Assembly: GCA_964610025.1 (NCBI GenBank)
Contig: CAZSTX010000005.1
Span: forward strand, 1-55,689
Length of the DNA: 55,689 bases
Direction of reading: 5' to 3'
DNA from: an uncultured Lentimicrobiaceae bacterium
GTDB taxonomy: Bacteria > Bacteroidota > Bacteroidia > Bacteroidales > WCHB1-69
The notes beneath the pieces were generated by a model. That model made no database searches. It saw only the letters and a program-made list of their open reading frames with translations, and was not told where the DNA came from. The translations under genes were made by a program, and so were the position numbers. Below are positions 1 to 7,001 of the stretch, one piece after another (the first letter of the stretch is position 1; every line of letters begins with the position of its first letter).

Positions 1-132
1 GTGCTGCGGTAAGGCAAGGGATTGCCAGCAAAATAGGCAGCGGATTTATTATGGTTCTTTCTTGGTTTGCTTTCTTCCCATAGATTTTATCTTGGAATAA
101 CAGGAAGTGGCATTTTGTATTTATTTACTGGA

Positions 133-152
133 CAAGTGGGCAAGCCCACTTG
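133..152. other. Perfect GC-rich inverted repeat (hairpin/cruciform)
   Basis: CAAGTGGGC-AA-GCCCACTTG: 9-bp perfect arms at 133-141 and 144-152. Confidence 0.7.
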
Positions 153-182
153 GTAATATTAGTTTTCACAATACAAATTCAC

Positions 183-290
183 ATAGTGCGGTTAAGAAAT
201 TTCAAAAATGAATAATAATGCAGTTTGAAATAATAATAATAATAAAATAGTGCAGTTTCTAGTGATAAAATTTACAAAATAGTGCAGTTT
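183..290 (+). repeat. Four phased 12-bp direct repeats (core ATAGTGCAGTTT), period exactly 32 bp
   Basis: ATAGTGCGGTTA 183-194, ATAATGCAGTTT 215-226, ATAGTGCAGTTT 247-258, ATAGTGCAGTTT 279-290, separated by 20-bp AT-rich spacers. Confidence 0.85.
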
Positions 291-340
291 AAAAATGATA
301 TTAAAAAGATAAATAGAGAATTCCTGCCAAAATCACCTGC

Positions 341-473
341 TTCTAACAAGCGATATGGTTAATTGCCGATGCAGTGCGTATTCGAGCGGCGCAGCTCGTA
401 TCAAAAGTAGTTGTAACTTGATAGAGAATCGCTTCGAAATGCCAAACGTTTCATACACGCAGCCGTTAGGTGC
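341..473 (+). mobile_element. attC-like recombination-site candidate (imperfect inverted repeat, ..CTAAC ... GTTAG..)
   Basis: TTCTAAC at 341-347 and GTTAGGT at 465-471. Inner complementary blocks are GCG/CGC and TATG/CATA. The length of about 130 bp fits attC sites. No integrase is present in the window. Confidence 0.45.
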
Positions 474-486
474 AAGTGGAAGAAAT

Positions 487-535
487 ATCCACTCTTCTAT
501 CTAGCGGAGTAGCCGAAAGCCGTAAGCGAGTGGAT
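487..535. other. GC-rich hairpin element
   Basis: ATCCACTC (487-494) pairs with GAGTGGAT (528-535) around a GC-rich interior. The right arm overlaps the start of direct repeat 1. Confidence 0.55.
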
Positions 536-589
536 TGATATTCCCAATAAATTCTGGATAGTAAGATAAGTCCAAAAATTTTATCTTTG
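534..589 (+). repeat. 56-bp direct repeat, copy 1 (left of R-M module)
   Basis: ATTGATATTCCCAATAAATTCTGGATAGTAAGATAAGTCCAAAAATTTTATCTTTG, 55/56 identical to 3181-3236. Ends in TATCTTTG (TAnnTTTG). Confidence 0.95.
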
Positions 590-1031
590 TTCACGTCTAA
601 ACTAAATGTTTTCACACGCTTATTATTTTAATACATAAAAAGACATGAAACATTTGTTTTTTTCAAGATATTCAAAAAACATTAAATTTACATCAAAAAT
701 CTAAGGAAATTTATAAATTTTTATTGAATATAATCAAAAAAATCCATTGAATTTAAAAAAAAGCAAAACGTAACGAATTGATACATATATTATAAAAAAT
801 ATTTTTAAAAATATGTTATTTTATTAAAATATTTGTATAATTTTGCACCTACAAAGAAACAAGAAAACATTAAAATTTAAGTGTCTTGAACTAAAATAAA
901 TATATATCAAAATAATTCTCATAAAAACTTTACCAAGCCAACCATTATGTTGTATAAACAAGAATTTATGAAGGGTATAAATATATTAGAGCCAATGCTA
1001 TTTGACCGCACCGTTTAAAGATAACCCGAAG

Positions 1032-1047
1032 TAATTTTGTACCTTTG
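1032..1047 (+). promoter_or_regulatory. Bacteroidota -7 promoter boxes upstream of the methyltransferase
   Basis: TAATTTTG 1032-1039 and TACCTTTG 1040-1047 both match TAnnTTTG. The ATG is at 1080. Confidence 0.55.
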
Positions 1048-1079
1048 TACCTATAAACTAAATTAATGAGAAGAAAAAA

Positions 1080-2369
1080 ATGTTGAATAAAACAAAGCAT
1101 ACAATTATAAACGGAGACAGCCGACATATGAGCGAACTTAACGATGAAAGTGTTCATTTAATTACGACTTCCCCACCTTATTGGCAACTCAAAGATTACG
1201 GAACAGAAAATCAAATCGGATTTCATGATGATTATGAAACATACATTAATCACTTGAATTTAACTTGGCAAGAGTGTTTTCGAGTTTTGCACAAAGGGTG
1301 CCGTTTATGTATCAATATTGGCGACCAATTTGCTCGTTCAACCTATTATGGTCGTTACAAAATCATTCCTATTCATACTGAAATTATCAAATTCTGTGAA
1401 GTGATTGGGTTCGATTTTATGGGACAAATCATTTGGCAAAAAGCAACCACAATGAACACTTCGGGTGGTGCAAGTATTATGGGAAGTTATCCAAATCCAA
1501 GAAATGGTATCGTAAAATTGGATTTTGAATATATTTTGTTGTTCAAAAAACAAGGAAATGCACCCAAACCGACCAAAGAACAGAAAGAAAACGCTTCAAT
1601 GACTAATGAAGAATGGAATACTTACTTTAATGGGCATTGGTATTTTTCTGGAGCAAAACAAGATAAGCATTTGGCCATGTTTCCTGAAGAATTACCACAT
1701 CGTTTAATCAAAATGTTTTCTTTTCCGGGAGAAACCATTTTAGACCCATTTATGGGAAGCGGAACAACTGCTTTGGCTGCAAGAAACTTAAACCGAAATT
1801 CTATTGGTTACGAAATTAATCCTGATTTCATTCCAATCATCAAAGAAAAAATTGGAACAGATGATGCTTTTACAAAAGTTCAAACTGAAATAATCCAACA
1901 GCCTGAATTAAAAACAGATTTTGAAAAACAAATAAAAGAATTACCTTATCAATTTATTGACACGCACAAATTAGACAAGAAAATTGATGTAAAAAAAATT
2001 CAATACGGTTCTAAAATTGATGCAAATAGCACAGGAAAACGAGAAGAATTTTTCTCTGTAAAAGAAATTATTAGTCCTGAACTTATTCGTTTGAGTAATG
2101 ATTTAATAATTCGATTAATTGGGATTAAACAAAATCCAGCTTTTAACGGAAAAGCAACCGAATATTTAATCAATAAAGTTCGTGGCAAAAAAGTATTCCT
2201 TAAATACGATGAAATTAAGCACGACAATGAGAATAATTTAATGGCTTACCTCTATCTTGAAAACAAAACTTTTATAAATGCACATTTATTAAAAGAAAAT
2301 TTAGCATTAGTAGATAATTCCATTGATTTTAAATATAAAACAAAATTTAACTCATTTATCAATGGCTAA
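1080..2369 (+). CDS. Type II R-M DNA methyltransferase (N4-C/N6-A, beta class) with C-terminal SNase-like domain
   Basis: Motif IV SPPY lies near the N-terminus and motif I DPFMGSGTT later (beta order). The last ~110 aa align by eye with thermonuclease (IRLIGI..., D...LMAYLYL...INAHLLKENLA). Confidence 0.93.
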   Translation: MLNKTKHTIINGDSRHMSELNDESVHLITTSPPYWQLKDYGTENQIGFHDDYETYINHLNLTWQECFRVLHKGCRLCINIGDQFARSTYYGRYKIIPIHTEIIKFCEVIGFDFMGQIIWQKATTMNTSGGASIMGSYPNPRNGIVKLDFEYILLFKKQGNAPKPTKEQKENASMTNEEWNTYFNGHWYFSGAKQDKHLAMFPEELPHRLIKMFSFPGETILDPFMGSGTTALAARNLNRNSIGYEINPDFIPIIKEKIGTDDAFTKVQTEIIQQPELKTDFEKQIKELPYQFIDTHKLDKKIDVKKIQYGSKIDANSTGKREEFFSVKEIISPELIRLSNDLIIRLIGIKQNPAFNGKATEYLINKVRGKKVFLKYDEIKHDNENNLMAYLYLENKTFINAHLLKENLALVDNSIDFKYKTKFNSFING

Positions 2370-3060
2370 AAAAGAAATCAAAAGATACTCGTTAGAATTT
2401 GGGAAAAAGGAAAAAGTTCTGAATTATGCTACACAAACTTACCAACTTTCAAGACCCAACAAAGTTGGGGCTGTAATGGCTTTAATCAGAGAATGTCAGC
2501 CAAATACTATTCAAGAATGGGAAGAATGGTATTTTGAAAATGCTACAACAGCAGGAAAAAACACTTTCAAAATAACGAAAGAAAGTTTAGAAGAACTTGG
2601 AGAAAGGCTTTACGAAAAAATTACGGAAGTTGTTATTCCCGAATGGCAAGAGGCTTTTAATGCTTTGACAAAAGAAGATTGCTACAATTATATTTACAAT
2701 CTTACTATCAATCGAACCTTTGACGGATATTTAAGAGAAAAATCAGTCGTAAATGATGGTTTGGTAAAGGCGTTTCCAAATGTTCGTTTTGAAGAAAGTC
2801 CACCTGAATTAGACCACGCAGGAGATATAGACTACCTTGGATACGTTACAGATAATAAGGCATTTGGAATACAAATAAAGCCTGTAACTGCACAGTCAAA
2901 CTTTGGCAACTATTCTGTTTCAGAAAGAATGAAAGCAAGTTTTGAAAGTTTCAAAAAAGATTTTGGAGGTAATGTATTTATCGTTTTCAGTTTAGACGGA
3001 GAGGTTGCAAACAGACAAGTAATTGACCAAATTCAAACTGAAATTGAACGACTGCAATGA
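2362..3060 (+). CDS. Type II restriction endonuclease, probably MjaI family (PD-(D/E)XK variant)
   Basis: Coupled to the MTase by an 8-bp overlap (ATG at 2362 preferred over the ORF-track start at 2323). Carries IDY...GIQIKP (D...QxK) and an N-terminal RPxxVGxVMxLIxE..TIxEWEEWY block that I recall as typical of RE_MjaI-like proteins. Confidence 0.75.
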   Translation: MAKKEIKRYSLEFGKKEKVLNYATQTYQLSRPNKVGAVMALIRECQPNTIQEWEEWYFENATTAGKNTFKITKESLEELGERLYEKITEVVIPEWQEAFNALTKEDCYNYIYNLTINRTFDGYLREKSVVNDGLVKAFPNVRFEESPPELDHAGDIDYLGYVTDNKAFGIQIKPVTAQSNFGNYSVSERMKASFESFKKDFGGNVFIVFSLDGEVANRQVIDQIQTEIERLQ

Positions 3061-3064
3061 TAAT

Positions 3065-3169
3065 GCACTGGCTATAACAGCGTATTGCCAATAGAGCGAG
3101 TGAAGTGCTTCTATGAAACATTCGTGAAGAGTTCAACAACAGTAACTTTATTGAACTTTTGTACTAAAA
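3065..3169 (+). mobile_element. Left half of a second attC-like element, truncated
   Basis: GCTATAAC at 3071-3078 lies 11 bp after the REase stop. There is an internal hairpin AGTTCAA/TTGAACT (3130-3136/3151-3157). No matching GTTA right arm occurs before direct repeat 2. Confidence 0.4.
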
Positions 3170-3180
3170 GAAATTAGAGT

Positions 3181-3236
3181 ATTGATGTTCCCAATAAATT
3201 CTGGATAGTAAGATAAGTCCAAAAATTTTATCTTTG
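3181..3236 (+). repeat. 56-bp direct repeat, copy 2 (right of R-M module)
   Basis: Identical to 534-589 except A540/G3187. Confidence 0.95.
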
Positions 3237-3272
3237 CGTCCAGAAAAAATTATAAATATCAAATTATTACTA

Positions 3273-4007
3273 CTATCTCAATTCAAAATTCTTTCCAAGA
3301 TAAACTTTACGTACTATTTCGTCGTTAGCAAGTTCTTCGGGTGTGCCCGATTTAAACACTTTTCCTTCCAATAACAAATAGGCTTGATTAGTAATGGCAA
3401 GTGTTTCATGCACATTATGATCTGTAATAAGAATTCCTATATTTTTATCTTTTAATTTATAAACTATCTGTTGAATATCTTCGACAGCAATGGGGTCGAC
3501 ACCTGCAAAAGGCTCATCTAAAAGGATAAATTTGGGGTTACTTGCCAACGAGCGGGCTATTTCTGTTCTTCTACGCTCACCTCCTGACAACTGTAAGCCT
3601 TTGCTTTTTCTTATACGCTGTAATCCAAATTCTTCTAACAAAATTTCAAGTTTTTCTTTTTGCTCTTCCCGCGATAAGTTTGTAAATTGTAAGACTGCCT
3701 TTAAATTATCTTCTATCGACAAATGACGAAAAACAGAGGCTTCTTGTGCCAAATAGCCTATGCCTATTCGTGCCCTCCTATACATAGGTAAATGCGTAAT
3801 TTCGGTATCATTAATAAATATTTTACCCGCTAATGGCTTTATCAGACCTACTATCATATAAAAAGAGGTTGTTTTTCCTGCACCATTAGGACCTAACAAG
3901 CCGACTATCTCGCCTTGTTTTACTTGCACACTTACATTATTGACAACAGTACGATTGTGGTATTTTTTATAAAGTCCTTCTGTACGTAAAACATCTCTAT
4001 TTTCCAT
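3273..4007 (-). CDS. lptB: LPS export ABC transporter ATP-binding protein
   Basis: GPNGAGKTT, LSGGERRR, LLDEPFAGVDP, ITDHNV. Start placed at MENRDVL (4007), immediately after the rseP stop. Confidence 0.95.
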   Translation of the reverse strand: MENRDVLRTEGLYKKYHNRTVVNNVSVQVKQGEIVGLLGPNGAGKTTSFYMIVGLIKPLAGKIFINDTEITHLPMYRRARIGIGYLAQEASVFRHLSIEDNLKAVLQFTNLSREEQKEKLEILLEEFGLQRIRKSKGLQLSGGERRRTEIARSLASNPKFILLDEPFAGVDPIAVEDIQQIVYKLKDKNIGILITDHNVHETLAITNQAYLLLEGKVFKSGTPEELANDEIVRKVYLGKNFELR

Positions 4008-4008
4008 C

Positions 4009-5478
4009 TTATCCAAAGAGTTTAAAAATATCGTTCCCAAAAACGAATATCATCAATGTCAATAATATAACCCAACCAATAGTAAGAGCATATTCCATAA
4101 ATTTATCGGGTAATTTCCTACCTATAATCATTTCTATTAAGGTAAACAAAACAAAACCTCCATCTAATCCTGGTATAGGCAAGATATTCATAAATGCCAA
4201 TATCAGCGACAACAAAGCAGTAATATACCAAAATTTAGCCCACACCCACTTGCCGCCGTATATTTTTGCTATTCCAATCGGTCCCGAAACAGATTCGCTT
4301 GCTTTTTCTTCTCCTGAAACTATTTTTTTCAGCCCTTTAATGTTTAATTTCAACATGGTCATAGCATCTTTCCATCCATAAACTAAGGTTTGCAAAACAG
4401 AGTATTGTTTCAATTCATAAGGCATAGCATTAATACCTACTCCTATTTTTCCAGTCGAATCTAACAAGAGCGATTTAACAAGTGTATCTTCGTTGCTTAC
4501 AATGGTCAAATCGATTGCTTGATTAGCAAATTGTATAATATTTTCTTCAAAACTTCCCCAAGTTTGCACATTAATAGAATCGTTAATAAACAATATAGCA
4601 TCTCCTTTTTTTATTCCTATTTTATCGGCTGTTGAACCATCAAATACAGTATCAATGTGAAAAGTAAAATTAGATGCTTTTATAAAATTTTCTCCCGTTT
4701 TCAATAAATGATAGCTTGCCTCTCCCAGCACAACATCTAATGTTTCGCGATTTCGTTCGACTGTAACAATAGAGCCAAAAAACATTTCAGGACTTATCGC
4801 ATCTTGAAAACGTTCTACTGCTTTGCCTTGCACTCTTATGATTTTGTCTCCTGTCATAAAGCCTATTTTCCTTGCATTTTCGTAGGCATAAATTCCATCT
4901 TTCACTGCACTATTAGGCAAGTATTCTTTTTCATAAATTCCTAAAAACATAGCAAACAACAATACTCCTACGACAAGATTAATGATAACACCTCCCAAAA
5001 CCACTATCAAACGTTGCCATGCTGGCTTGGAACGAAACTCCCATGATTGCGGTTCTGATTGTAGATTTTCAATACTTTGCGTTTCATCAATCATACCTGC
5101 TATTTGACAATAGCCTCCCAAAGGCAGCCACCCAATACCGTATTCGGTATTATCGGGATGTTTTCGCCAATCTGTATCGTCTAATTTGTTAATATCTATA
5201 TTTTTATACTTCTTTTTTCCTTTTTCATCTAAAATAGGATTGCCATTGTCGTCTGTGAGCAATTCGGTATCTGGCAAATTTTTAGAAAAAAACTTCCATT
5301 GTAATTTTCCATTTATTTTTTTTATTTTTACAAGAGAATATTTTGGATTAAAAAAGATATAAAATTTATTGACGCGTATACCAAACATACGTGCCGTAAT
5401 AAAATGTCCAAATTCGTGAATAAGTACTAAAAAAGATAAGCCCACTATTAATTGGGCTGCCATAATAAATCCTGTCAT
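4009..5478 (-). CDS. rseP: RIP intramembrane metalloprotease RseP
   Basis: HEFGH, LPLGGY, PDZ region, NILPIPGLDGG. ATGA overlap with dxr. Confidence 0.95.
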   Translation of the reverse strand: MTGFIMAAQLIVGLSFLVLIHEFGHFITARMFGIRVNKFYIFFNPKYSLVKIKKINGKLQWKFFSKNLPDTELLTDDNGNPILDEKGKKKYKNIDINKLDDTDWRKHPDNTEYGIGWLPLGGYCQIAGMIDETQSIENLQSEPQSWEFRSKPAWQRLIVVLGGVIINLVVGVLLFAMFLGIYEKEYLPNSAVKDGIYAYENARKIGFMTGDKIIRVQGKAVERFQDAISPEMFFGSIVTVERNRETLDVVLGEASYHLLKTGENFIKASNFTFHIDTVFDGSTADKIGIKKGDAILFINDSINVQTWGSFEENIIQFANQAIDLTIVSNEDTLVKSLLLDSTGKIGVGINAMPYELKQYSVLQTLVYGWKDAMTMLKLNIKGLKKIVSGEEKASESVSGPIGIAKIYGGKWVWAKFWYITALLSLILAFMNILPIPGLDGGFVLFTLIEMIIGRKLPDKFMEYALTIGWVILLTLMIFVFGNDIFKLFG

Positions 5479-6632
5479 AAATTATTTTTAATTTGAAAAG
5501 CAATTTGTCTTGCTTCGTTATTTATTTGTATATAATTTTCAATAGTTGGATGCGATATATTGTTTATTTTCGATAGCGTTTCTTCTATCACTATAGGAAT
5601 TTGTAAAAAATGAATCTCTTCTTCTAAAAAAGCTTCTACAGCTACTTCATTAGCAGCATTCATAGCACAAGGACAAGTTCCACCTACTTCAATCGCTTGA
5701 TAAGCTATATCTAAACATTTAAACAATTTTTTATCCGGTAAAGAAAAATTAAAACTCGGATAGTCAGTAAATGAAAAGCGTTTCAATTCGTTATCAAAAC
5801 GATGTGGAAACGAAAGTGCATAAATAATAGGTAAACGCATATCGGGTAATCCTAATTGAGCTTTAATAGAAGAATCAGAAAATTGCACCATTGAATGTAT
5901 AATGCTCTGGGGGTGAATTACCACTTCAATTTGTTTAGGCGAAATATTAAACAGCCATTTCGCTTCTATAACTTCTAAACCTTTATTCATCAGTGTAGAT
6001 GAATCAATTGTTACTTTATTTCCCATTTTCCAATTAGGATGCTGCAAAGCTTGTTGAGGGCTTATCTGTTGCAACATCTCTTTGTTCATTCCCAAAAATG
6101 GACCTCCTGAAGCTGTTAGAATAATCTTTTCAACTTTATTGTAATTCTCTCCTATCAAGCATTGAAAAATAGCCGAATGTTCTGAATCAACAGGAATAAT
6201 AGGAACTTGATTGTCAAGTGCTAATTTCGTAATAATTTCGCCAGCTACTACCAAGGTTTCTTTATTAGCCAAAGCTATCGGCTTTTTATGTAAAATAGCG
6301 TTATAAGTAGGCAGTAAACCCGCATAGCCAACCAAAGCCACTAAGACCATATCGATACTACTCATTTCAACAATTTGTTCGAGCGAACGACTACCTGCAA
6401 AAACTTTGATATCGTATGCCAACAAAGCAGTATTAAGCTGCTGATAATATGTTTCGTTTTCGATTACTACTGCGTTGGGACGAAAAGCAATAGCTTGTTC
6501 TATAAGCAAATCAACATTATTTTGTGCTGTAAGCACTTCTACTTCAAAAAATGAATCATGTGTTGCTATTTGCTCTAATGCTTGCCTGCCTATGCTACCC
6601 GTTGAACCTAAAATCGCTATTCGCTTTTTCAT
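5475..6632 (-). CDS. dxr: 1-deoxy-D-xylulose-5-phosphate reductoisomerase
   Basis: ILGSTGSIG, LANKETLV, PVDSEH, HPNWKMG. Start at MKKRIAIL (6632). Confidence 0.97.
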   Translation of the reverse strand: MKKRIAILGSTGSIGRQALEQIATHDSFFEVEVLTAQNNVDLLIEQAIAFRPNAVVIENETYYQQLNTALLAYDIKVFAGSRSLEQIVEMSSIDMVLVALVGYAGLLPTYNAILHKKPIALANKETLVVAGEIITKLALDNQVPIIPVDSEHSAIFQCLIGENYNKVEKIILTASGGPFLGMNKEMLQQISPQQALQHPNWKMGNKVTIDSSTLMNKGLEVIEAKWLFNISPKQIEVVIHPQSIIHSMVQFSDSSIKAQLGLPDMRLPIIYALSFPHRFDNELKRFSFTDYPSFNFSLPDKKLFKCLDIAYQAIEVGGTCPCAMNAANEVAVEAFLEEEIHFLQIPIVIEETLSKINNISHPTIENYIQINNEARQIAFQIKNNL

Positions 6633-6656
6633 ACAATACAATAAAATAAATCAATG

Positions 6657-6664
6657 CAAAAATA
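6657..6664 (-). promoter_or_regulatory. -7 promoter box of the dxr-rseP-lptB operon
   Basis: TATTTTTG on the minus strand, 25 bp upstream of the dxr ATG. Confidence 0.6.
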
Positions 6665-6845
6665 CGAAATTCTAAAACGTGAATAAACAAAGTTTAGTAT
6701 TTAATTGAAAGTATTTTTCAAATCTTCTATTCTATGAAAAGAAAAACGTAAATATTTAATACATTTTCCTAAAATAGTTCTCAAAAACTGTTTCTTATAA
6801 AAAAATGCTTACTTTTGTGATTAAGAAATAAATAAAAACCAATAA

Positions 6846-7001
6846 ATGAAAAATTTTAAAGAGAAAGCAGTCCTGATTTGGAGAATAGCAGACATGCTAA
6901 GAGAAGATTACAAACAGTCTGACTATGAAAAAGTAATACTTCCAATGACTATATTAAGGGGATTAGATTGTGTAATTCAGCCAAGCAAACATACCTTATG
7001 A
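6846..7001 (+). pseudogene. hsdM: N-terminal stub (51 aa) of a type I R-M modification subunit
   Basis: MKNFKEKAVLIWRIADMLREDYKQSDYEKVILPMTILRGLDCVIQPSK* matches the HsdM_N pattern (IWxIADxLRGDYKQSDYGKVILPxTxLRRLDC), with substitutions at conserved G and R residues. TACTTTTG box at 6810-6817. Not in the ORF track. Confidence 0.8.

Follow-up and report, generated by a model that had tools for sequence, protein, structure and literature searches.

A probable decayed integron-type restriction-modification cassette between two pre-existing repeats beside lptB in a Bacteroidales genome

Description

We describe a type II restriction-modification (R-M) gene pair beside lptB in a 55,689-nt stretch of a Bacteroidales metagenome-assembled genome (MAG); this whole stretch is referred to as the window, and the features of the locus are listed in Table 1. 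The DNA methyltransferase (MTase) and restriction endonuclease (REase) are the only real genes between two copies of a 56-bp direct repeat. A preliminary description had read everything from 534 to 3236 as one 2.6-kb unit holding just these two genes; its account of the genes holds, and its unit does not, as 590-992 is a separate AT-rich repeat.

Table 1. Features of the R-M locus (positions in the window)
Feature	Position	Strand	Remarks
ATARTGCRGTT boxes, four, 32-nt period	183-310	+	lie in an ORF-less unit to the left of the hybrid attC-like site; neighbour, outside the R-M unit
Hybrid attC-like site	341-471	+	R''-like TTCTAAC 341-347; family centre ~371-444; R'-like GTTAGG 465-470
Unique spacer	471-533	+	between left site and left repeat; polymorphic between samples
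56-bp repeat, left copy	534-589	+	first 56 nt of full-length AT-rich unit E
Repeat unit E	534-984	+	AT-rich (17-29% GC), non-coding, multi-copy; right limit between 957 and 984
Conserved mobile R-M unit	993-3169	+	gene cassette without recombination-site arms; only stretch common to relatives
TAnnTTTG boxes, two, overlapping	1032-1047	+	in conserved 87-nt leader; putative cassette-borne promoter
DNA methyltransferase, beta-class N4/N6	1080-2369	+	PF01555, E 9.5e-46; SPPY motif
MjaI-family type II REase	2362-3060	+	PF09568, E 7.6e-32; overlaps MTase stop by 8 nt
Truncated attC of the cassette	3071-3171	+	R'' GCTATAAC 3071-3078; L'' GTATTGCC 3082-3089; centre to GTACTAAAA; stem', L' and R' absent
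56-bp repeat, right copy	3181-3236	+	start of a second E unit, ends after 56 nt at the lptB flank
lptB (ABC ATPase)	3273-4007	-	first chromosomal gene

The R-M genes

The MTase matches PDB entry 2zie (E 1.6e-56) and carries a C-terminal SNase-like domain (aa 351-416, PF00565, E 3.2e-7), and the REase aligns to the RE_MjaI profile over 155 of its 164 positions; no structure has been solved for this REase family. An RE_MjaI domain and an adjacent, co-oriented MTase are thus both present, and the pair resembles MjaI / CTAG type II R-M systems (PF09568) in combining an RE_MjaI REase with an SPPY beta-class MTase, differing from them in the extra SNase-like domain. By family assignment the pair would be CTAG-specific, which is consistent with the depletion of CTAG in the window (24 observed against 131 expected, 0.18 of expectation). 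The REase has 4122 homologues, many at 80-95% identity across phyla; on plasmids, tblastn with the REase reached no closer than 24-27% relatives, in Firmicutes, and phages yielded none; a plasmid megablast with 1-6700 gave no match, and exact-protein look-ups of LptB, MTase and REase returned no record.

The 87-nt leader before the MTase is kept in all relatives, and its two TAnnTTTG boxes, which we take to be the Bacteroidetes -7 promoter box, may form a promoter, judging from their sequence; the 3' end of the left repeat copy (TATCTTTG) also fits this box. A foreign origin had earlier been suggested on the basis of codon usage. The codon-usage check gave a small deviation: ATC and CGN codons are somewhat raised in the MTase only (13 Arg codons), and GC, GC3 and KL divergence from host usage place both R-M genes within the range of 43 host ORFs.

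The mobile unit and its relatives

A foreign origin is borne out by other evidence, as is an origin as a cassette: R-M units at 83-88% nucleotide identity occur in Flavobacteriales-type, Chitinophagaceae and Ignavibacteria contigs, and in four contexts they are flanked by genuine attC sites. Six independent relatives have DNA in common with the window only over 993-3169 or less. Loci L081-L084 and L089 align to all of this span (blastn, 87.6-88%); L085-L088 and L090 have it save for extra genes between the MTase and REase genes and, in L087 and L090, save for what is cut off by contig ends; and in L091 and L095 the shared span is shorter. The bounds 993 and 3169 recur in five independent contexts, the behaviour of a discrete unit such as a gene cassette. 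The repeats had been taken as the bounds of the R-M unit, a role that falls away, since the conserved unit starts about 400 nt inside the left repeat. Next to the start of the array in L085 lies the remnant of a tyrosine recombinase, which among NCBIfam families best fits TIGR02249, integron integrase (E 4.9e-21). The first cassette of this array comes after attI-like DNA; L087 has the same first cassette after an attC, and the breakpoint between the two contexts is at GTTAGCA. Among the ORFs of the window, checked to ~16 kb, no mobility gene or integron integrase was found; the contig starts 340 nt to the left of the left attC-like site, within another high-depth repeat.

The unit in relatives comes after ...CGCCAAGCC-N5-CCGTTATGCA and before an attC of 139-140 nt, which folds as a long hairpin (dG -23.2, z -2.4). 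RNAalifold returned no consensus structure for six attCs. An R/L/stem structure was written by hand on the six sites and tested by pair counts: 84% of its cells are paired, against 27-44% in slid controls, and 12 pairs show compensatory changes, a number matched by 0 of 500 shuffles. Covariance model R1 scores full sites in the relative loci at 56-138 bits and recovers an unseeded site (L089:5405-5543). In the window R1 matches only 3105-3171 (E 1.6e-4), which corresponds to the unpaired model positions 35-101, without arms. Moreover, 3060-3169 aligns to the 5' arm and centre of the relatives' attC (Smith-Waterman score 54 against a shuffle maximum of 24), and the half site noticed earlier just after the REase stop is thus real. 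This remnant forms no hairpin (fold z -0.75), and our own covariance model found no complete attC anywhere in the window; a complete attC, a feature of gene cassettes, is present in relatives and absent here. With the 3' arm missing, excision by an integrase is not expected. TTAGAGC (984-990), the proposed start of the cassette, from the TT of a GTTRRRY core, complements the R'' of this cassette (GCTATAAC); by sequence reading, GCATAAC and TTATGCA are the corresponding pair in relatives.

The 56-bp repeat and unit E

The two repeat copies had been described as 56 bp long with one mismatch, and they are indeed identical at 55 of 56 bases, with an exact 49-mer inside (541-589 = 3188-3236) and a possible extension to 61 nt at 95% (529-589 / 3176-3236). 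The window holds two copies, where shuffles predict 0.00. It contains no tRNA or tmRNA, and the repeat is therefore not a tRNA-derived att site, an identity that was considered and dropped; Rfam gave nothing at the gathering threshold for the whole window and nothing at E<=1 for 1-3400, and two JGI metagenome scans and one viral scan had 0 matches to the repeat core.

A search for further copies, as the preliminary description had advised, showed the repeat to be multi-copy. The depth of its core is 357-456x against a host depth of 13.7-13.8x in public runs X1 and X2, and 105x against ~7x in X6; that of the left copy is 750-970x at 85% likeness (host 13.8). The family amounts to ~15-32x host depth, and it lies at the ends of other contigs of host depth (11-17x), with at least 8 differing left flanks; elsewhere the repeat also occurs in tandem or inverted. 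The matching depth of these contigs suggests that the copies lie in the same genome. The 56-bp repeats are copies of a repeat that probably occurs many times in the organism and are not insertion scars, which leaves the idea of a two-copy att pair or target duplication without support.

R-M pairs are known to insert with long target duplications (Furuta, Abe, Kobayashi, 2010; PMC2853133), and a self-insertion of this Nobusato / Furuta / Kobayashi type, in which the R-M unit duplicated 56 bp with no other mobile element, would suit several features of the locus: a bare R-M pair, direct repeats of ~50 bp (30-100 bp is documented around bare pairs of types I-IV), no transposase or integrase adjacent, and no mobility gene among the ORFs checked to ~16 kb. 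We nevertheless consider it highly improbable. Documented targets are single-copy in the empty genome, whereas this repeat is a 15-30x family with many flanks; the left copy does not abut the conserved unit, with ~400 nt of non-R-M repeat DNA lying inside it; and neither a single-copy target nor a one-copy empty site was found. Synteny with the closest GTDB relative (L001, LptB 93% identical) stops at the lptB stop codon. L001 has no repeat and no alignable empty site and, its DNA past lptB being unrelated, is uninformative on this point. The locus fits instead the third class of the same study, a chance position of, or insertions between, repeated sequences (PMC2853133).

We give very little credence to the repeat or its junctions having arisen by mis-joining in the metagenome assembly. 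It is true that repeats longer than k=31 abound in the region, that in X1, X2 and X6 the Logan contigs are interrupted at 3232, and that 483-527, within the polymorphic spacer, has zero depth in four runs (X1, X2, X4, X5) even at 85% likeness. Against this, single exact public contigs cover 439-565 (X6), 2950-3210 (X1, X2) and 3120-3294 (X25), and further exact contigs cover 541-632 (X5) and 851-1376 (X1). Both outer repeat junctions are present in independent public runs, and the repeat is therefore not an assembly artefact, the finding that would have undone the earlier reading.

The repeat is the head of unit E, which has no + strand ORF of at least 40 aa and has paralogues on contigs of 12619, 5950, 20141, 3226, 1956, 547 and 447 nt at 11-17x. 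These run on past 905/907 as GCAAAATAATCCTCAyWAAACyTWCGCCAA. The 3' part of E (906-950) resembles an attC 3' arm (CCAAGCC..CCATTATG), a likeness that at 933-949 is not significant alone (reached by 10-49 of 200 shuffles). E, of which only the window's copy was readable from end to end, may be an ORF-less cassette, a MITE-like element or an insertion into attCs. Its imperfect terminal inverted repeats (534-555 / 961-982) agree at 16 of 22 positions, which is not significant alone, and were rejected as too weak to be MITE evidence.

Elements that target attC sites include IS1111-attC elements and group IIC introns, and a mobile, non-autonomous, MITE-like E could similarly have entered the centre of the cassette's attC, displacing a 3' arm that was then lost, and have inserted separately upstream. 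The right copy begins 11 nt past the attC centre motif GTACTAAAA, the left flanks of other copies are mutually unrelated, and the inverted repeats, such as they are, point the same way. This history is unlikely all the same: there is no visible target-site duplication, the inverted repeat is weak, no transposase was identified, and the right boundary is not clean, 906-957 having the same sequence in all five readable right ends of E copies.

The repeats had also been thought to make the R-M pair excisable or amplifiable. Repeats identical at 55 of 56 bases are probably long enough for RecA-dependent recombination, and a circular R-M element with one 56-bp copy could have integrated at a matching copy in the chromosome beside lptB in the manner of Campbell, by site-specific or RecA recombination, leaving attL/attR-like repeats and an excisable segment of 2,647 bp. 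Indeed, 534-3236 can be written as a circular permutation of [R-M][attC 5' arm][E][attC-3'-arm-like 906-950] whose ends are redundant over 56 nt, and the multi-copy E units would supply targets. What makes such an integration improbable is that, by sequence reading, the 906-950 arm is not complementary to the 5' arm of the R-M cassette, that no recombinase is seen, and that relatives share 993-3169 only and never E. The segment lacks the features of an attL/attR island as well, with only the MTase and REase genes between the repeats and a transferred unit of 993-3169 rather than 534-3236. Neither the excision or empty-site joint (589->3237) nor the circle joint was found in the contigs of seven runs, in which rare forms are invisible, and the exact R-M contigs stand at 10-20x, about single copy at host depth, and so show no amplification.

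The left attC-like site

The attC-like sites of the window come to one hybrid, of a different and very abundant family, and one truncated, neither of them full in R1. The hybrid (341-471) had been called a complete attC-like site: its ends are complementary (TCTAAC/GTTAGG), it shows no hairpin in the fold tests (z +0.24, +0.5 and +0.66) and no match to R1, and its arms come from different family members. Past 440, other copies of the family read CGGCAACTAACCATACC, the complement of the window's 5' arm ATATGGTTAATTGCCG, and TGCCAAA, the 3' arm in the window, has its pairing partner in the arms ATTTGGCA that other copies carry; the site is a hybrid of two attC family members. Its centre reaches a depth of 1000-5000x in bioreactor runs (host 13.8). 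Upstream, ATARTGCRGTT occurs at 183, 215, 247 and 279, four matches against 0.2 by chance. As no single public contig spans the join at ~421-439, the first 440 nt of the window may represent a variant or have been mis-joined. The locus is composite, as had been suspected.

Discussion

Taken as a whole, the locus is probably a decayed integron-type R-M cassette between two repeats that were there before it. The MTase-REase pair, a type II system whose SPPY methylase would be of the N4-cytosine type, probably spreads as an integron-type gene cassette with a putative promoter of its own. Here it would have ended up on the outer margin of a region that abuts lptB, is rich in repeats and resembles a cassette array, and with loss of the attC 3' arm an integron integrase would no longer fold and cut the site, leaving the cassette stranded. 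The 56-bp repeats would be the heads of two neighbouring E copies, one full length and one cut at the chromosome boundary; pre-dating the cassette, they would have been placed on either side of the R-M pair and not created by it. The array, possibly with intI, presumably continues leftward off the contig.

The locus probably belongs to a known kind: it would be a defence cassette on the margin of a CALIN-like array, its host being a Bacteroidales MAG. Like the defence cassettes, type II R-M among them, of sedentary chromosomal integrons and CALINs (Darracq et al., bioRxiv 10.1101/2024.07.02.601686; Cury/Neron, IntegronFinder), it is a compact MTase-REase unit with a putative promoter and an attC right after the stop codon; its relatives lie in arrays whose R''/R' cores are TAAC/GTTA and whose L boxes covary, the same cassette occupies attI-like as well as attC positions, one relative has an integron-integrase-like remnant, and contigs likewise break inside repeated attCs. 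Unlike them, the window shows no intI, and its attC is without a 3' arm; the host belongs to Bacteroidales, in a phylum in which RefSeq integrons are rare; and the neighbouring array units are AT-rich and ORF-less, with a 56-bp head that is not a described attC feature. E with its head might be an undescribed, lineage-specific array element of Bacteroidales, either a family of ORF-less cassettes or an element aimed at attC centres, with homologous recombination between units, in place of the integrase, moving, trapping or deleting defence cassettes. We find this doubtful; if true, the repeats would bound a functional module of 2,647 bp that RecA could excise. With repeats that are multi-copy and not insertion scars, the locus is a fairly ordinary decayed cassette.

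For genome scanning, the lesson is to establish how many copies of a long direct repeat exist before calling it an insertion scar when it flanks an R-M pair. The locus also adds evidence for integron-like cassette arrays in metagenome genomes of Bacteroidales and Flavobacteriales, in a phylum whose reference genomes have almost none. In some Bacteroidota the R-M unit stands in arrays, bounded by attC sites, and in three lineages it is stranded, in two of which (the window and L091) the attC arms are lost, and the locus shows how a widely travelled defence cassette becomes fixed in a chromosome.

Results

Two 56-bp direct repeats, reported in the preliminary description as bracketing the restriction-modification (R-M) genes, are borne out (55 of 56 positions identical), share an exact 49-mer (541-589 = 3188-3236), match over 61 nt at 95% (529-589 / 3176-3236), and are the only copies in the window (0.00 expected from shuffles). 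The methyltransferase (MTase) and restriction endonuclease (REase) genes, the REase start overlapping the MTase stop by 8 nt, are indeed the sole two credible genes between them, but 590-992 is not part of the transferred unit. No tRNA, tmRNA or Rfam family was found at the locus.

Features of the locus and exact public-run contigs (window coordinates)
Feature	Position	Strand	Evidence or context
Left attC-like site	341-471		
Left 56-bp repeat	534-589		
AT-rich repeat unit E	534-~984		
Beta-class N6_N4 DNA methyltransferase	1080-2369	+	PF01555, E 9.5e-46
MjaI-family restriction endonuclease	2362-3060	+	PF09568, E 7.6e-32
Right 56-bp repeat	3181-3236		
lptB	3273-4007	-	beyond right repeat; then rseP-like M50 protease, dxr
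Exact contig	439-565		X6; left site into left repeat
Exact contig	541-632		X5
Exact contig	560-621		X2
Exact contig	851-1376		X1
Exact contig	2950-3210		X1, X2; REase end, half site, into right repeat
Exact contig	3120-3294		X25; half site, whole right repeat, lptB stop

The repeats had been taken as the borders of the unit. In DNA comparison with six independent contexts of related R-M genes, homology to the window never exceeds 993-3169, so the transferred unit excludes the repeats and 590-992; it is a 2.18-kb block from 87 nt before the MTase start to 109 nt past the REase stop. Identity is 87.6% over the entire block in contigs L081-L084 and L089 of other bacteria; L085-L088 and L090 cover it save for extra genes between MTase and REase and, in L087 and L090, for contig ends, and homology is shorter in L091 and L095. 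REase homologues number more than 4000, many 80-95% identical, in Flavobacteriia, Bacteroidia, Chitinophagia and Ignavibacteria. The extra genes (L085-L088, e.g. L085:4652-4999; L090:1462-3206) comprise a 115-aa ORF of no known family in one case, and in another a GmrSD_N protein and a HEPN protein, which are defence genes nested within the R-M operon.

By its flanking sequences, the R-M unit of these relatives is an integron-type cassette. It is preceded by the 3' end of a different site (...CGCCAAGCC-N5-CCGTTATGCA, then CAATGC...) and followed by a 139-140-nt site, GCATAAC-AAG-GTATTGCC-AAAA-GCGGGG-(~70 nt)-CCCCGC-CTTC-GGCAATAC-CCAAAAC-GTTGGCG. The relatives' attC folds into a long hairpin (bottom strand dG -23.2 kcal/mol, z -2.4), and a hand-written R/L/stem structure was tested by pair counts on an alignment of six sites: 84% of cells are paired versus 27-44% with partners slid, compensatory changes occur in twelve pairs, and none of 500 shuffles attains these values. 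R1, a covariance model of attC built from the relatives' sites, recovers full sites in their loci at 56-138 bits and finds L089:5405-5543, unused in its building, at 65 bits. The R-M attC R'' (GCATAAC) is complementary to the first cassette bases (TTATGCA), as expected of a circularisable cassette. L085 holds four cassettes in series on one strand, adjoining a frame-broken tyrosine recombinase on the opposite strand whose C-terminal piece best matches TIGR02249 'integron integrase' (E 4.9e-21), ahead of XerA, XerD and XerC. Its first cassette is preceded by attI-like DNA, the same cassette in L087 by another cassette's attC, and the breakpoint is GTTAGCA, the canonical crossover core.

The half site described after the REase stop was confirmed: 3060-3169 aligns to the relatives' attC over its 5' arm and centre (SW 54, shuffle maximum 24), with stem', L' and R' gone after GTACTAAAA and GAAATTAGAGT plus the right repeat in their place. 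An R1 search of 55.7 kb gave one significant match, 3105-3171 (29.7 bits, E 1.6e-4), spanning unpaired model positions 35-101 only, and the right site showed no hairpin fold (z -0.75). The window copy of the R-M cassette is degenerate. In L091 (Chitinophagaceae), where this R-M stands as a single isolated copy, the match is likewise centre-only, an internal deletion of ~25 nt having taken out stem' and L'. Homology to the window begins 7 nt past the expected cassette start, and 983-990 reads A/TTAGAGC; since TTAGAGC complements the window's own R'' (GCTATAAC, complement GTTATAGC), this left edge, judged from the sequence itself, is probably a genuine cassette start that covaried with R''. Separately, the last array cassette of L081 (3880-3990) ends, at the border with chromosomal genes, in an apparent attC 5' arm (CGCCAAC-ATC-GGTTTGGCG-CAAGCGGGGG) without a 3' arm, which parallels the window truncation.

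The left site, described as a complete attC-like site, has complementary ends (TCTAAC...GTTAGG) but neither folds (z +0.24, +0.66, +0.5) nor matches R1. Its centre reaches 1000-5000x in metagenome runs versus 13.8x for the host. Most other copies continue after 440 as CGGCAACTAACCATACC-N5-CCGTTAGC, the complement of the window 5' arm ATATGGTTAATTGCCG, and the partner of the window 3' arm (ATGCCAAAC...) is the ATTTGGCA 5' arm that other copies carry. These pairings mark the left site as a hybrid in which two family members meet at a shared centre; it does not fold because its arms come from different members. Either genuine recombination (cassette deletion) or an assembly jump could have produced the hybrid; no single public contig bridges ~421-439 within the shared centre. 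The flank varies from sample to sample: 483-527 is missing from runs X1, X2, X4 and X5. Immediately upstream of the site, an ORF-less AT-rich stretch (183-310) carries four ATARTGCRGTT boxes at exact 32-nt spacing (183, 215, 247, 279; 0.2 expected), which look like iterons or a regulator-binding array. The contig start (1-37) lies at 70-80x versus 13x for the host, which places this contig end within a further repeat and fits an unresolved array farther left.

The host lineage belongs to Bacteroidales of bioreactor and wastewater metagenomes, and exact contigs from independent public runs cross both outer repeat junctions (Table), ruling out an assembly artefact there. Repeat core depth at >=98% identity is 357x (X1), 443-456x (X2) and 105x (X6), versus host depths of 13.8x, 13.7x and ~7x. 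Other contigs of host-like depth (5950, 20141, 12619, 12687 and 1143 nt; 12-16x) also end in the repeat, which has at least 8 mutually unrelated left flanks and is joined elsewhere in tandem and inverted arrangements. Most copies continue into 590-660-like sequence, and 536-~977 is multi-copy throughout at 80-85% likeness. Past 905/907, paralogues of E (3226, 1956, 547 and 447 nt; 11-17x) read GCAAAATAATCCTCAyWAAACyTWCGCCAA, which is window 906-935 with an unbroken attC L' box (CGCCAAGCC). The left repeat therefore forms the head of a full AT-rich unit E, and the right repeat the head of a second E that the lptB flank interrupts after 56 nt. E has 17-29% GC and a plus strand lacking any ORF of at least 40 aa, and two JGI scans with the repeat core gave no match; it may represent a family of ORF-less cassettes, be MITE-like, or have inserted into attC centres. 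A second short repeat family, a 35-nt stretch of the lptB 3' flank (3227-3261, TTTATCTTTGCGTCCAGAAAAAATTATAAATATCA) that reaches 125-290x in X1 and X2 and is bordered on either side by other sequences, explains why public contigs break at 3232.

The proposal of an excisable or amplifiable cassette found no support. The R-M genes are not amplified, since their exact contigs have a depth of 10-20x against 13.7-13.8x for the host contig. The 589-to-3237 and circle joints are both absent from contigs of seven runs, which cannot exclude rare forms. The closest GTDB relative (L001, LptB 93%) was uninformative as an empty site, the DNA beyond its lptB being unrelated.

Codon usage, earlier described by eye as favouring ATT/ATC and CGN, is not aberrant: GC (0.31, 0.34), GC3 (0.25, 0.24) and divergence from host usage (KL 0.073, 0.136) of MTase and REase lie within the spread of 43 other ORFs, with ATC and CGN modestly higher in the MTase only. 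The MTase combines an SPPY motif, as is typical for N4-cytosine enzymes, with a weak C-terminal SNase-like domain (aa 351-416; PF00565, E 3.2e-7; NucI-like in NCBIfam) kept in most relatives. From their families, the MTase would protect CTAG and the REase cut unmethylated CTAG of incoming DNA; CTAG occurs 24 times in the window versus 131 expected (0.18), consistent with but not specific evidence for this specificity. The conserved leader contains two TAnnTTTG boxes (1032-1047), which suggest a Bacteroidetes-type promoter carried by the cassette itself. Other palindromes are also depleted across the window (GATC 28 vs 112, GGCC 4 vs 45, GCGC 15 vs 35 expected), and with CTAG suggest a past of several restriction systems in the lineage. 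A 51-aa ORF (6846-7001), 200 nt from dxr and matching only the HsdM N-terminal domain (PF12161, E 1.2e-9), looks like what is left of a type I R-M methylase and would be another decayed trace of R-M close to the locus.

Discussion

The R-M genes probably came in as a gene cassette that entered, or landed next to, an array adjoining lptB, and they are now stranded because their attC cannot fold. RecA-dependent loss of 2,647 bp via the flanking 56-bp repeats may still be possible, and post-segregational killing, for which type II R-M systems are known (Kobayashi), would select against it.

Of the three classes of repeats around R-M genes distinguished by Furuta et al. (site-specific recombination, long target duplication, and chance insertion between repeated sequences; PMC2853133), this locus falls in the third. 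Defence cassettes including R-M are established in integrons, types II and IV being the prevalent cassette restriction systems (bioRxiv 10.1101/2024.07.02.601686), and CALINs and degraded arrays have been described (PMC8618304; IntegronFinder 2.0). Less described so far are the AT-rich E unit and, because only a single complete Bacteroidetes integron was detected in RefSeq (IntegronFinder 2.0), cassette arrays in Bacteroidales and Flavobacteriales.
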